Assembly: GCF_003334765.1 (NCBI RefSeq)
Contig: NZ_QOWT01000002.1
DNA length: 64,000 nt
Source: Escherichia coli
GTDB lineage: Bacteria > Pseudomonadota > Gammaproteobacteria > Enterobacterales > Enterobacteriaceae
Strand: one strand, 5' to 3'
A program made the position numbers and the translations under genes. How positions within the stretch are numbered: the first letter of the stretch is position 1; every line of letters starts with the position of its first letter. Below, one piece after another: positions 17,439-29,578 of the stretch. Under the pieces are notes generated by a model. That model saw only the letters and a program-made list of their open reading frames with translations. It had not been told where the DNA came from and searched no databases.

Positions 17439-18491
17439 TTATTTACTCTCCTGCGGCGACAAATGTTGCATCGCCTGCGCGATACTACGTTCAATCACCG
17501 CACGGCGAGTATCGTTGGCAGGTAAGAGTTTCAACATCATCTCCCACGCGGCAACGGCTTCGCCAAATCGCTGCTGCTCAAAGGCATTAAACGCATACAT
17601 GCTTAGCACACGGATATTGCTATGGTCCGTTCTCACCAGCTGACGTAGCAGTTCACCGCCGAGGCGGTTGTCGTTGGGATCAGATGAACGAGTCAACGCT
17701 TCAGCGTATCCCAGTGCAGCATCACTGTTTTTCGGATCGAGGCGATACGCAGTGGCGTATGCATCGGTGGCGATACTGGCGTTACCCAGCGCCATGCCAA
17801 CGCGGCCCAACATAATCCAGCCTTCTATATCTCCCGGATTTTTTTGCAGTTGAGTACGCATCCCCAGCGCAAGACGCGACATCTCTTCTTCGTTGAGCGG
17901 ATCGGCTTTCGGATCCAGCGCCCTGTCCAGCAACGCCGGAGCCTGTGCCGTGGCCTGCTGCCAGATTTTCACCTGCTGATAATTGCCAGTCTGGTAGTAG
18001 CTGACGCCAGCCACAATTAACGCCACCACAATACCCGGCAGATAAACAACATATCCGGCACGCTTACCTTCCGGCACGCTTTGTTCAGGAAACGCTTCCG
18101 GCACCACGCGTACCCGACGCCGCGAGCGGGCGTATATGACCCAACCGCCAATGCCAATAGCCACTACTGGCAGCACCCACAGCAGCACGGTCAGCGGCGT
18201 TAACGGCGGATCGTAAGTGACGAAGTTGCCGTAACGCGCCACCATATAATCGACAATCTCTTTTTTACTTTTACCTTCCTGCATCAGTTCATACACTTTC
18301 TGACGCAGGTCGGTGGCAATCATCGAGTTGGAATCGGCAATGCTGTTGTTCTGGCATTTCGGGCAGCGCAGTTCTTCAGTGAGCTGACGGAACTGTTGTT
18401 CCTGTGCTTCATCTTTAAACTGCAACACATCGATGGTCGCCAGCGCTGAGCCGGAGATCATCAGCATCAGCACGCCCAATAAAAACCTCAT
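17439..18491 (-). CDS. ccmH: Cytochrome c maturation protein CcmH (fused CcmH/CcmI type)
   Basis: 350 aa; LRCPKCQ motif; TPR-like C-terminal half. Confidence 0.92.
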   Translation of the reverse strand: MRFLLGVLMLMISGSALATIDVLQFKDEAQEQQFRQLTEELRCPKCQNNSIADSNSMIATDLRQKVYELMQEGKSKKEIVDYMVARYGNFVTYDPPLTPLTVLLWVLPVVAIGIGGWVIYARSRRRVRVVPEAFPEQSVPEGKRAGYVVYLPGIVVALIVAGVSYYQTGNYQQVKIWQQATAQAPALLDRALDPKADPLNEEEMSRLALGMRTQLQKNPGDIEGWIMLGRVGMALGNASIATDAYATAYRLDPKNSDAALGYAEALTRSSDPNDNRLGGELLRQLVRTDHSNIRVLSMYAFNAFEQQRFGEAVAAWEMMLKLLPANDTRRAVIERSIAQAMQHLSPQESK

Positions 18492-19045
18492 TGTGCGGCC
18501 TCCTTACTGTATTTCTCCCACAGCGGCTTGATCTCTTCTTCCCAGACGCGAGGATTCAGATCGCCCGCATGGCGATAGCGAATGATGCCGTTGCCGTCAA
18601 TAAGAAACGTTTCTGGCGCGCCATAGACACCGAGATCCAGCCCTAACATGCCATCGCCATCAAACAGGCTTAGCGCGTAAGGATTGCCCAGCTCTTTCAG
18701 CCAGCTGATTGCCTTCTGGCGATCGTCTTTATAGTTCATGCCGACCACGCGGATGCCCTGCGCAGAAAGCTGATTCAGATATTGATGTTCCGCACGGCAG
18801 GTCGGACACCAGGTCGCCCAGACGTTAAGCAGTACTGGTTTGCCCTGAGTCAGCACATCCGCCTGATAAAACTGCCCCGGATTGTCCAGTGATTCGAGAC
18901 GAAACTTCGGCACAGGCTTGCCAATGAGCGCCGATTCCAGATTGGTCGGATCATCCCCTTCGGCATTACGCGCCAGCTGCCACAGCAGCGCCGCGGCAAT
19001 CGCCAGGAAGATAATCAACGGAATTAACAATACTTTGCGCTTCAT
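18488..19045 (-). CDS. ccmG: Thiol:disulfide interchange protein CcmG/DsbE
   Basis: 185 aa; thioredoxin motif WCPTC; 4-nt overlap with ccmH. Confidence 0.94.
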   Translation of the reverse strand: MKRKVLLIPLIIFLAIAAALLWQLARNAEGDDPTNLESALIGKPVPKFRLESLDNPGQFYQADVLTQGKPVLLNVWATWCPTCRAEHQYLNQLSAQGIRVVGMNYKDDRQKAISWLKELGNPYALSLFDGDGMLGLDLGVYGAPETFLIDGNGIIRYRHAGDLNPRVWEEEIKPLWEKYSKEAAQ

Positions 19046-20985
19046 ACGGCCTCCGGCGCAGTTTTTTGCGGACTCACGCGCTTACGATAGCGAGGATCAA
19101 ACAGACACAGCAGTCCGCCCAACGCCATCATCAGCCCGCCCGCCCAAATCCAGCGAACAAATGGTTTGTAGTAAAGACGCACGGCCCACGCGCCGTTTTC
19201 CAGCTCTTCACCGAGGGCCGCGTACAGGTCACGCGTGATGCCGCCGTCAATTGCCGCTTCGGTCATCATCGACCCGGCAGTGTTGTAATAACGTTTTTCC
19301 GCATACAGCACCGTTTCCGGCTTGCCATCGCGCGTTACGCCGATAGTCGCCACACCGCCACGCCAGTTCGGGCCAGTCACCTCTTTGACATCACGGAAGG
19401 TGAAGCGATATTCATGAATATCGACGCTATCGCCGGACTTCATGCGCACATCACGCTCAACGCTATAGTTCTGGCTAAAGGCAATGCCAACAATTGTCAC
19501 TGCCAGCCCAAGGTGAGCCGCCACCATCCCCCAATAACTGAAGGTGGTTTTCGTGCCGCGTGAAATACGTAGCGCAGCTTCCGCAATTGCCAGCACCGCA
19601 ATCCAGCAGGCCATTGCCAGGCCGAGCACCGTCATCGCCACAACTTTGCTTTCGAACAGCCACGGCAACAGCAGCGACAGCACCAGCGTAGAGATGAAGG
19701 CGATAATCAATAAATTGCGGATCTTACGCGGGCGATCCCGCCCCCAGCGCACCAGAGGACCGACACCAAGCAGTAGCGCAAACGGCACCATCAGCCAGGT
19801 AAACATGGTGTTGAAGAACGGTTCGCCAATCGAAATACTGCCCAGTCCCAGTTGCTTATGCACCAACGGCAGCAGCGTCCCCAGCAACACCACCAGCATC
19901 GCAGCGACCAGCAAAACATTGTTCGCTAACAGCAAAGATTCCCGCGACCACAGCGCATTGTTTACGCGTGAGCGAACTTTGTGTCCACGCGCGGCAAACA
20001 GCAGCAGCGAACCGCCAATCACCAGCACCATAAAGGCGAGGATAAACATACCGCGCGCCGGATCAGACGCAAACGCGTGTACCGATACCAGCACGCCGGA
20101 ACGCACGAGGAAAGTCCCCAACAGACACAACGAGAAGGCACTGATTGCCAGCAGTAATGTCCACGCTTTGAAGCTGGCGCGTTGTTCAGTGACCGCCAGT
20201 GAGTGCATCAGCGCAGTCCCCACCAGCCACGGCATAAACGAGGCGTTTTCTACCGGATCCCAGAACCACCAGCCACCCCAGCCGAGTTCGTAATAGGCCC
20301 ATGCGGAACCGAGCACGATGCCGAGCGTCAGGAAGATCCACGCTGCCAGCGTCCACGGACGAGTAAAACGCGCATAAGTGCTGTCCAGACGCCCGCTCAG
20401 CAAAGAAGCAATGGCAAAAGCAAACGCCACCGAGAAACCCACGTACCCCATATAAAGCAGAGGCGGATGGAAGATCAGCCCCGGATCCTGCAATAGCGGG
20501 TTAAGATCGCGACCTTCAATCGGGAAGTTCGGCAACGTGCGAGAGAACGGGTTAGAGGTAAAGAGAATGAACAGCAAAAAGCCGACACTGACCATCCCCA
20601 TTATCGCCAGTACACGGGCCACAATATCCAGCGGAATACGCTGACTAAAAATCGCCACCGCAAAGGTCCAGCCGCTCATCAGCAGCACCCACAGCAGTAG
20701 CGAGCCTTCATGCGCGCCCCAGGTAGCCGCCACGCGATACCACACCGGAAGCTGGGTATTGGAGTTGCTGGCAACATAGGTGACGGTGAAGTCGTTGACC
20801 ACGAAAGCATTGACCAGCACCAGAAATGCGCCAGCCACAGACATAAACAGCAGCCAGGCAAACAAGCGGGAAGACGCCATCATGCGCGCATCTCCGCGCG
20901 CCACGCCCCATAGCGGATACACGGACAGCAGCAGCGCAATTCCCAGCGCCAGGCACAGCAGTCCGTTACCAATTTCTGGCATCAT
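19042..20985 (-). CDS. ccmF: Cytochrome c-type biogenesis heme lyase subunit CcmF
   Basis: 647 aa; polytopic; WWD-type motif [12 protein letters not shown]. Confidence 0.94.
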
Positions 20986-28834: not shown

Positions 28835-29094
28835 GGTGTTTCCTCACCTTGCTCTTCCTGCTGGTGATAAACCAGCGACACCGCCAGCACGCCCTCTACG
28901 TTGCGTACTGACTCAATGGTTTGGATCAGCGTTTCGCTGTCTTCTGCTTCCACCACCACAATCAACTGACCGCTCGGCGCGTCGCTGACAGCAACTTCAC
29001 AGCCGGGAAAGGCGTTCAGTTGGGTGCTGATGTCTGAAATTCGTTCGCTTTTGGCCTGCACGACCAGGCTGCAAACTTGCCAGTTAGTGTGCAT
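28831..29094 (-). CDS. napD: NapA chaperone NapD
   Basis: 87 aa; overlaps the napA start by 4 nt. Confidence 0.92.
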
Positions 29095-29578
29095 GGAGAT
29101 ACTCCGCAGTTATGGCTGATACCGGACAGCTGGCTGCACATGCTCCACATCCGTTGCAAAGTTGGCTATTAAGTTGCGGCTGGTAGATCCCGGAGAGCGT
29201 CGGGCGAAAGATAATTGCCATTGGCTCACAGCTATCCTGACAGCGGCGGCATTCAACTGACTGATACGCCAGGCACGCGTCCCCGATGGTGAACTGCAAA
29301 TCCCAGGCCCTGGTGTGGCGCGGAGAAAATAGCGATTCGGGGCAAGCCTGCGCGCAGGCGTAACAGAAGCTGCACTCGTTATTTTTGAAATTAACGCTCG
29401 GATAGCCGCCCGCGCCGCGTTGCAGAATGTTGTTTTCACAAGCATTAATACAGGCGTCGCAGCGGGTGCAATGGGTCAGAAAATGAGATTCATCACCGGA
29501 CCAGGGCGGACGGATACCGTTACTGGCTTTGCGCCAGCGACCAGTGAGTATGCCCCGACGGGATGCATCAATCTTCAC
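29084..29578 (-). CDS. napF: Ferredoxin-type protein NapF
   Basis: 164 aa; multiple CxxCxxCxxxCP/E clusters (CTRCDACINACE, CSFCYACAQACP, CNGCGACAASCP). Confidence 0.93.
   Translation of the reverse strand: MKIDASRRGILTGRWRKASNGIRPPWSGDESHFLTHCTRCDACINACENNILQRGAGGYPSVNFKNNECSFCYACAQACPESLFSPRHTRAWDLQFTIGDACLAYQSVECRRCQDSCEPMAIIFRPTLSGIYQPQLNSQLCNGCGACAASCPVSAITAEYLHAH

Follow-up and report, generated by a model that had tools for sequence, protein, structure and literature searches.

Fifteen intact nap and ccm genes with overlaps at most junctions form a K-12-like nap-ccm operon in an Escherichia coli chromosome

The minus strand of the 64,000-nt stretch of E. coli DNA analysed here (contig NZ_QOWT01000002.1 of assembly GCF_003334765.1; hereafter the window) carries, between positions 17439 and 29578, fifteen intact co-directional genes in the order napFDAGHBC-ccmABCDEFGH. 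The best explanation as a whole, which we hold with very high confidence, is that this block is the chromosomal E. coli nap-ccm locus, expressed as a single unit in which translation of overlapping genes is coupled. All 15 ORFs have a length divisible by three, no internal stops and an ATG or GTG start, and their coordinates match exactly the PGAP/RefSeq annotation for E. coli K-12 MG1655. A previous sequence-only reading had proposed the gene names, their order and an intact Nap and Ccm system, which the ORFs, family matches and motifs uphold; upon translation, 15 of 15 nap and ccm ORFs were open and none was frameshifted. Curated NCBIfam cut-offs, mostly of equivalog models, are passed by 14 of the 15 proteins, while the fifteenth, CcmH, is recognized by two Pfam domains instead of an NCBIfam match above cut-off. 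An Rfam search returned no RNA family matches inside the block.

Between positions 17000 and 30000, the DNA differs from MG1655 by a single base, 17378, located in a REP element downstream of ccmH, and because this sole difference is intergenic, the 15 proteins are identical to those of K-12. The K-12 napFDAGHBC-ccmABCDEFGH unit (b2208-b2194) thus has the same gene order, coordinates, 15 protein sequences, junctions and promoter sites, with zero differences within the block. The two strains differ outside it: yejO is intact here (863 aa, 13670-16261) whereas K-12 has an IS5 at this place, and their REP arrays between eco and mqo are of unequal length. When used as a query, the block matched E. 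coli genomes at 100% identity over 100% of its length, and 5,417 of the 5,426 complete genomes contain it. The identification of a nap-ccm operon is therefore correct, ordinary and already known. Its discovery value is small, since the genetics, biochemistry and structures of the locus have been described from the 1990s onwards and the proteins encoded here are those of K-12. The stretch does serve as a positive control: every gene call, overlap and motif that the earlier reading took from the raw sequence proved accurate.

The first seven genes encode a complete Nap system. The catalytic molybdoenzyme subunit NapA (26348-28834, 828 aa) scores 1654 bits against TIGR01706 (cut-off 931) and exhibits a Tat signal (SRRSFMK) and a 4Fe-4S cysteine motif (CRFCGTGC). 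Its residues 37-828 align with chain residues 1-792 of the solved E. coli structure, PDB 2nya, an alignment that places the start of mature NapA at residue 37. NapB (24350-24799, 149 aa; NF008609, 328 bits) is a dihaem cytochrome c subunit with two CLQCH motifs, and NapC (23738-24340, 200 aa; NF007906, 463 bits) is a membrane tetrahaem quinol dehydrogenase with four CxxCH motifs (CISCH, CPDCH, CRNCH and CIDCH). A longer napB, starting at an in-frame ATG at 24820, was rejected; in an alignment, the same frame carries a stop in Providencia. The accessory proteins, all four of which have equivalog scores above cut-off, are NapD (28831-29094, 87 aa; NF007840, 168 bits), the NapA signal-peptide chaperone; NapF (29084-29578, 164 aa, GTG start; TIGR00402, 248 bits, cut-off 102), a cytoplasmic ferredoxin-type protein; NapG (25646-26341, 231 aa; NF007012, 416 bits), a periplasmic ferredoxin with the Tat signal RRRFLR; and NapH (24796-25659, 287 aa; NF007013, 471 bits), the membrane quinol dehydrogenase ferredoxin subunit. 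NapF, NapG and NapH all display Fe-S cysteine motifs, with three full and one partial CxxCxxCxxxC in NapF, the N terminus of which is Tat-like (SRRGIL). NapH also has two CxxxCP motifs. The cofactor motifs previously listed, that is, four CxxCH in NapC, two in NapB and Tat signals on NapA and NapG, were thus all found.

From established knowledge of these roles, NapA, with its molybdenum and iron-sulfur cofactors, and the dihaem NapB would together form the periplasmic nitrate reductase. NapA would be exported via the Tat pathway with the assistance of NapD, NapF would act in the cytoplasm in NapA maturation, and the tetrahaem NapC together with NapGH would hand on electrons from quinol. Periplasmic nitrate reductase activity has been demonstrated experimentally in K-12 (Potter and Cole 1999), and from the 100% protein identity to K-12 we infer that this locus would confer the same activity.

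As for the ccm genes, they encode all eight components of System I, the CcmABCDEFGH(I) pathway of alpha- and gamma-proteobacteria, complete with Walker A, WWD, CcmE histidine, CPTC and LRCxxC motifs; NCBIfam scores are above cut-off from CcmA to CcmG. CcmA (23102-23725, 207 aa, GTG start; NF010061, 333 bits) is an ABC ATPase with the Walker A motif GSNGAGKT and the signature LSAG, and CcmB (22443-23105, 220 aa; TIGR01190, 317 bits) is the ABC permease. CcmC (21664-22401, 245 aa; TIGR01191, 282 bits), a haem-handling WWD protein containing WGTWWVWD, matches chain C of the solved E. coli structure PDB 7f02 over its full length (residues 1-245). It is followed by CcmD (21458-21667, 69 aa; TIGR03141), the haem chaperone CcmE (20982-21461, 159 aa; NF009635, 322 bits), with the haem-binding histidine in LAKHDENY, the haem lyase CcmF (19042-20985, 647 aa, WGGWWFWD; TIGR00353, 1016 bits) and the periplasmic thioredoxin-like CcmG/DsbE (18488-19045, 185 aa, CPTC; NF011941, 422 bits). 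The last protein, CcmH (17439-18491, 350 aa; Pfam PF03918 and PF23914), combines in one chain a CcmH domain (residues 7-130, LRCPKC) and a CcmI-like TPR domain (TPR_CcmH_CycH, residues 173-330), a fusion known for E. coli, whereas in Rhodobacter and Shewanella CcmI is encoded separately (PMC8782879). Following the accepted scheme, CcmABCD would charge the chaperone CcmE with haem and then release it, and CcmFGH would attach the haem to the CxxCH motifs of cytochromes, including NapB and NapC encoded just upstream.

The 14 junctions measure, from napF to ccmH, -11, -4, +6, -14, -4, +9, +12, -4, +41, -4, -4, -4, -4 and -4 nt. Overlaps are found at napF/D (-11), napD/A (-4, ATGA), napG/H (-14) and napH/B (-4), and, at -4 nt each, at ccmA/B, ccmC/D, ccmD/E, ccmE/F, ccmF/G and ccmG/H. 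Every overlap length listed beforehand (4, 11 or 14 nt) equals the distance computed from the sequence. Stop and start codons therefore overlap at 10 of 14 junctions, in eight cases as ATGA, and the earlier statement that almost every junction overlaps is sound in substance but mildly overstated, since napA/G (+6), napB/C (+9), napC/ccmA (+12) and ccmB/C (+41) do not; apart from the 41 nt between ccmB and ccmC, no gap in the block is sizeable. In 12 of the 14 downstream genes, a GGAG-like Shine-Dalgarno precedes the start by 6-10 nt, and in overlapping pairs it falls inside the upstream gene. The ccmA start, 12 nt after napC, has a weak Shine-Dalgarno.

A distance of -8 to +10 nt combined with a Shine-Dalgarno inside the upstream ORF has been used as a criterion for translational coupling (PMC10666635), a definition that we followed. 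Ten of the 14 junctions belong to this distance class, which takes in no more than about 33% of all unidirectional E. coli gene pairs (820, versus 1,630 with distances above +20 nt; PMC10666635), and the block is enriched over this background (binomial P = 0.004). Two further junctions have longer overlaps, of 11 and 14 nt. This enrichment in the class is real, but it is a known signature of operons encoding complexes. Gene pairs overlapping by 4 nt (-4) have proved coupled in experiments, and in E. coli heteromeric complexes are 4.5-fold enriched among them (PMC10666635). Termination-reinitiation at the overlaps is the most likely means of coupling translation here, and it would help to keep subunit ratios fixed. 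Coupling by reinitiation is unlikely at napC/ccmA, with its +12 nt and weak Shine-Dalgarno, and at ccmB/ccmC (+41). Alternatively, the overlaps could be neutral by-products of genome compaction, produced by drift of start and stop codons and devoid of any translational role. Four nt is the commonest overlap class genome-wide, and codon drift in simulations can reportedly yield 4-nt overlaps. This explanation is nonetheless improbable: overlap lengths are identical across genera in spite of otherwise well-diverged synonymous sites, synonymous variation falls sharply around several nap junctions, and overlapping E. coli pairs that were tested experimentally are tightly coupled (PMC10666635).

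Synonymous sites are strongly conserved where napD meets napA and where napH meets napB, and the synonymous profile is unusually low over the last ~65 codons of napH. It is possible, though we regard it as rather doubtful, that the near-invariant sites at the 3' end of napD and 5' end of napA, and in the last ~65 napH codons and the napB start, mark undescribed cis-acting RNA or DNA elements, which, if true, would set relative Nap subunit output beyond what a simple stop/start overlap achieves. One candidate is a hairpin that would mask the Shine-Dalgarno and AUG of napA until a ribosome completing napD unfolds it; a second would be an A/U-rich enhancer, or an internal start signal, ahead of napB. 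The napA-start hairpin is 97.9% paired in 26 sequences, but these belong to the very alignment from which it was predicted, and no more than 2 of its pairs covary; folded by itself, the E. coli sequence adopts a different structure there (z = -1.57). The masking hairpin is thus put forward purely as a hypothesis. A conserved RNA structure at napH/napB was rejected: the RNAalifold consensus, which spans 247 columns, is weak (-17.7 kcal/mol) and contains 2 covarying pairs.

Upstream of napF, the sequence itself displays a control region (29655-29800, minus strand) with three recognizable sites. A NarP/NarL 7-2-7 palindrome, TACCCCGATCGGGGTA, lies at 29707-29692, an FNR-like site, TTGATcctgCTACA, at 29726-29713, exactly 20 bp upstream of the palindrome, and an AT-rich ModE-like palindrome at about 29800-29775. 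Darwin and Stewart, and McNicholas and Gunsalus, reportedly placed the napF control sites at -44.5, -64.5 and -133.5. If the NarP site is centered at -44.5, transcription of napF would start at about 29655. The napF gene is co-activated by FNR and NarP (PMC3688515), and one long transcript would be expected from this nitrate- and anaerobiosis-responsive promoter. Within the block, standard and relaxed scans of the coding strand across napH, napB, napC and the ccmA start found no credible sigma-70 match for a ccm-internal promoter; the best candidate, near napB (ATGTCT, 16 nt, TACAAT), scored only 8/12. The nap-ccm genes are unmentioned in the SMRT-Cappable-seq supplements.

At the other end, the two best hairpins of the terminator scan both lie outside the block, and the strongest hits are just past ccmH. 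The long transcript is predicted to end at an intrinsic terminator made of a 9-bp stem followed by ATTTTTATT (17233-17257, minus strand), ~180 nt past the ccmH stop and abutting the narP stop codon; the published data consulted contained no matching experimental 3' end. On the plus strand, the narP terminator hairpin (17410-17432) coincides with a Term-seq 3' end at U00096.3 2291359(+), in exactly the same sequence. Its T-run extends into the ccmH stop codon, and the ccm strand has no T-run there. The ccmH and narP terminators are thus criss-crossed, with overlapping 3' ends.

Inside the block, 22 intrinsic terminator-like sites were counted versus 16.6 +/- 4.8 in shuffles, which is no excess. 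The proposal that there is no internal terminator consequently stands for intrinsic terminators, but not for Rho, as a termination region has been published inside napC. DirectRNA-seq with and without bicyclomycin places it at about window position 24059 (Adams et al., supplementary file 2), with a Rho score of 2.7 (p = 4e-5) in aerobic LB; without bicyclomycin, reads drop from 146 to 32, and in its presence from 118 to 70. This suggests that part of the transcripts initiated upstream end before ccm. When 78-nt windows were screened for being C-rich and G-poor, none turned up near 24059 to back this region, and the strongest lay in napA and ccmF.

Could nap and ccm then be two separate adjacent operons, nap ending via Rho within or after napC, ccm being expressed essentially from its own promoter, and the 15-gene operon being an annotation convenience? 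Besides the Rho region, the absence of overlap at napC/ccmA with the weak Shine-Dalgarno there, and the fact that ccm is convergent or unlinked in some relatives, speak for it. A separate weak ccmA promoter was also reportedly described by Tanapongpipat and colleagues in 1998. We judge this arrangement unlikely, if not quite so improbable as neutral overlaps. The napC Rho signal is modest and partial, the napC-ccmA gap is only 12 nt and contains no intrinsic terminator, the coding strand of napB, napC and the ccmA start yielded no sigma-70-like promoter, and the fused nap-ccm order is kept across several genera. Moreover, curated resources give a 15-gene unit, listed as napFDAGHBC-ccmABCDEFGH or 'napF--ccmH' (PMC2634741, PMC3946193). 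The layout found here, with co-directional genes, gaps of 41 nt at most, NarP and FNR sites upstream and a terminator after the last gene, is that of an operon, and in line with established knowledge we infer that napF to ccmH are co-transcribed as a single unit.

The same gene order and overlap pattern are repeated in 15 fully modelled loci from Escherichia, Citrobacter, Leclercia, Trabulsiella and relatives. Other Enterobacterales (napFDABC in Yersinia and Pantoea, which lack napGH; napFDAGHBC in Pectobacterium and Serratia) share the core order napF-D-A...B-C, nearly invariant napD/napA and napH/napB junction sequences and 74-91% NapC identity. The ccm genes behave differently: they adjoin nap but are convergent in Pectobacterium and Samsonia, are absent within 10 kb of nap in Yersinia, Serratia, Edwardsiella and Hafnia, and in Providencia ccmC directly follows napC, ccmAB being missing at this site. 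Linkage of ccm to nap is hence variable among relatives, and in those relatives ccm expression would therefore be independent of the napF promoter. The overlap pattern across genera and this variable linkage may be of interest for operon stoichiometry and the regulation of anaerobic respiration, and so may the constraint on synonymous sites where nap genes meet and the overlap between the 3' ends of ccmH and narP. Finally, antisense ORFs opposite napA (27968-28867) and napB (24419-24961) carry stops in most relatives. A third, facing ccmF (19544-20293), is open in several relatives, but its product would be of low complexity and rich in Ser, Thr and Arg. All three were set aside as coding-strand by-products.

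The block at 17439-29578 on the minus strand is an intact copy of the nap-ccm operon long known from E. coli, napFDAGHBC-ccmABCDEFGH; the sequence-only reading observed and interpreted it correctly, and nothing inside it is novel. The ORF listing of window 16000-31500 reveals fifteen minus-strand ORFs head-to-tail from 29578 down to 17439, and the RefSeq annotation of the matching MG1655 region (napF, napD, napA, napG, napH, napB, napC, ccmA-ccmF, dsbE, that is ccmG, and ccmH) agrees with the fifteen co-directional genes that had been proposed, with K-12 gene boundaries coinciding exactly, after conversion, with the coordinates of that reading. 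When compared base by base with K-12 MG1655, 13 kb of sequence differ at one position, 17378, within an intergenic REP element, and all fifteen proteins are thus identical to those of K-12. A megablast search of 5,426 complete genomes of E. coli matches window 17000-30000 with 100% coverage and ~100% identity, and at least 80% of it is found in 5,417 of these genomes. All fifteen ORFs begin with ATG or GTG, span a multiple of three nucleotides and are free of internal stops.

Curated NCBIfam models name 14 of the 15 proteins above cut-off, and CcmH displays a Pfam CcmH domain together with a CcmH/CycH TPR domain, a pair that corresponds to the known E. coli CcmH-CcmI fusion. The expected CxxCH motifs are present, four in NapC and two in NapB, as are the Tat signals of NapA (SRRSFMK) and NapG (RRRFLR). 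Alignment to the crystal structure of E. coli NapA begins at residue 37, consistent with removal of a Tat signal of 36 residues. Equally intact are the Fe-S cysteine motifs of NapF, NapG and NapH, the CxxxCP pairs of NapH, the Walker A and ABC signature of CcmA, the WWD motifs of CcmC and CcmF, and the context of the haem-binding histidine in CcmE, while CcmG contains CPTC and CcmH LRCPKC. With ORFs, motifs and family models all in agreement, the Nap and Ccm systems are intact, as had been proposed, and predicted to be functional.

As for the gene junctions, all ten overlap lengths listed by the sequence-only reading are correct, but "almost every" junction overlapping was an overstatement, since 4 of the 14 do not. 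Genes overlap by 4 nt at napD/A, napH/B, ccmA/B, ccmC/D, ccmD/E, ccmE/F, ccmF/G and ccmG/H, in each case with the sequence ATGA, by 11 nt at napF/D and by 14 nt at napG/H; gaps separate napA/G (6 nt), napB/C (9 nt), napC/ccmA (12 nt) and ccmB/C (41 nt). A GGAG-like Shine-Dalgarno, located inside or just past the upstream gene, precedes 12 of the 14 downstream starts, all but those of ccmA and ccmC. Of the unidirectional gene pairs in E. coli, 820 are spaced by -8 to +10 nt and 1,630 by more than +20 nt (PMC10666635), so the short class makes up no more than roughly one third; ten of the 14 block junctions belong to it (binomial P = 0.004). Translation of such short-distance pairs is tightly coupled, and subunits of heteromeric complexes are 4.5-fold overrepresented among them (PMC10666635). 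The overlap enrichment is therefore real, yet expected for this kind of operon, dense stop/start overlaps being a conserved trait to be expected where membrane and periplasmic complexes are encoded.

To place this layout among relatives, a NapC scan of one genome per species yielded 80 Enterobacterales loci, in which the fifteen proteins were placed by tblastn. The full co-directional 15-gene order occurs in Escherichia, Citrobacter, Leclercia, Intestinirhabdus, Silvania, Trabulsiella and some Enterobacter and Raoultella. In 15 fully modelled loci, the junction pattern is essentially that of E. coli, with 9-10 of 14 overlapping, and the few exceptions seem to stem from misassigned start codons in the crude gene model. 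Layout and overlaps thus go back to the ancestor of the Escherichia-Citrobacter group, whereas the linkage of nap to ccm has been flexible in evolution. Salmonella arizonae has napC followed by ccmA, within which the locus is cut. No ccm was found within 10 kb in Serratia, Edwardsiella, Hafnia and Atlantibacter; Yersinia and Pantoea likewise lack a ccm operon over this distance, apart from a lone ccmA-like ABC ATPase match in some loci, and are also without napGH. Providencia loci are without ccmA and ccmB, and ccmC directly follows napC after ~140-200 nt (at about 10600-10800 in L014, L028, L029, L031, L034-L038, L043 and L044); in E. coli, ccmA and ccmB are required for release of holo-CcmE. 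In Samsonia and Pectobacterium (L062, L073, L074, L076-L078 and L080), a complete, convergent ccm operon adjoins nap at napC, and beyond it lies a second CcmF/CcmH-like (NrfE/F-like) pair.

Synonymous variation at conserved residues was scored as normalised codon entropy over windows of 20 codons, for which the z-scores are descriptive rather than tree-aware. In the fused-operon group, the entropy has a mean of 0.52 +/- 0.10 but drops to 0.03-0.23 over napA codons 1-30 and napD codons 56-85 (the final napD window extends to codon 85 of 87), 0.18-0.27 over napH codons 221-285, 0.26 at the napB start and 0.23-0.29 at the napG and napC starts. The 3' ends of napD and napH rank with the most constrained windows in the more distant group as well. 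The strongest synonymous conservation of the operon, at 28745-28934 (napD 3' and napA 5'), is seen in distant Enterobacterales too, and nucleotide alignments show GGTGAGGAA..(C)CATGAAACTCAGTCGTCG near-unchanged from Escherichia to Yersinia. There, RNAalifold proposes a candidate hairpin in which the napA Shine-Dalgarno and AUG would be masked by pairing with codons 7-12 (97.9% paired); only two pairs covary, the control is biased by the structure's derivation, and, folded by itself, the E. coli sequence is not significantly more stable than its shuffled versions. At 24760-25000 (about napH codons 221-287 and the napB start), ~200 nt vary very little synonymously in the Escherichia-Citrobacter group, the final ~75 nt being conserved also in Providencia and Pectobacterium. 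Within its A/T-rich TTTA(C/A)AATAAC, ~35 nt before the napB ATG, AATAAC is invariant (22 sequences); no convincing RNA structure or promoter emerged at napH/napB. These constraints are compatible with embedded translation-initiation signals.

Inside the block, a consensus scan found no sigma-70-like site on the coding strand and a relaxed scan no convincing additional one; a ccmA promoter was reportedly described in an earlier paper. Terminator-like hairpins show no excess there, with 22 against 16.6 +/- 4.8 in shuffled sequence, but a published Rho-termination region internal to napC qualifies the statement that no internal terminator is apparent. This region (U00096.3 2297978, minus strand; Rho score 2.7, significance 4e-5) is listed for aerobic LB from DirectRNA-seq with and without bicyclomycin (Adams et al., bioRxiv 10.1101/2020.07.18.207399, supplementary file 2) and maps to window ~24059. 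A search for a C-rich, G-poor tract near 24059 found none, which makes the evidence for Rho termination there modest.

Three sites can be read from the sequence upstream of napF: TACCCCGATCGGGGTA, a 7-2-7 palindrome without mismatch, at 29707-29692; TTGAT-N4-CTACA, which resembles an FNR site, at 29726-29713; and a ModE-like AT-rich palindrome near 29800-29775. The FNR-like site is centred exactly 20 bp upstream of the 7-2-7 palindrome, a spacing equal to that of the published -44.5/-64.5 arrangement, which would place the transcription start near 29655. FNR and NarP co-activate napF (PMC3688515). The constitutive yojO promoter that Shimada et al. list (PMC3946193) is TTGAGA-16-CATAAT at 29611-29638 on the opposite strand, and it sits within the napF 5' leader. 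The small gene yojO itself runs along the plus strand at 29687-29851, across the FNR, NarP and ModE sites of the napF promoter.

At the other end of the operon, the two best terminator-like hairpins of the whole scan lie just past ccmH, and the ccmH-narP gap (17229-17438) contains a REP pair flanked by two look-alike GC-rich hairpins. The hairpin at 17410-17432, beside the ccmH stop, bears a plus-strand T-run and coincides with a published Term-seq 3' end that has exactly the same flanking sequence, which identifies it as the narP terminator, ending within the ccmH stop codon. The other, 17257-17233 on the minus strand, has a T-run in the ccm orientation, directly adjoins the stop codon of narP and is the predicted ccm terminator. 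Should both work as predicted, ccm and narP transcripts, from the operon and its own activator gene, would overlap by ~200 nt in their convergent 3' UTRs.

A 249-aa ORF antisense to ccmF (19544-20293, plus strand) is open in several Escherichia and Citrobacter relatives; given its low-complexity, Ser/Thr/Arg-rich product, it is most likely only a side effect of the sequence that encodes ccmF. Between eco and mqo, window 30501-31035 holds five tandem REP/BIME units, each matching Rfam naRNA4 (RF02564) above the gathering score, in an array that differs in length from that of MG1655. Finally, an 863-aa minus-strand ORF, presumably the yejO autotransporter, is intact at 13670-16261, whereas K-12 MG1655 has an IS5 insertion at this position upstream of narP.
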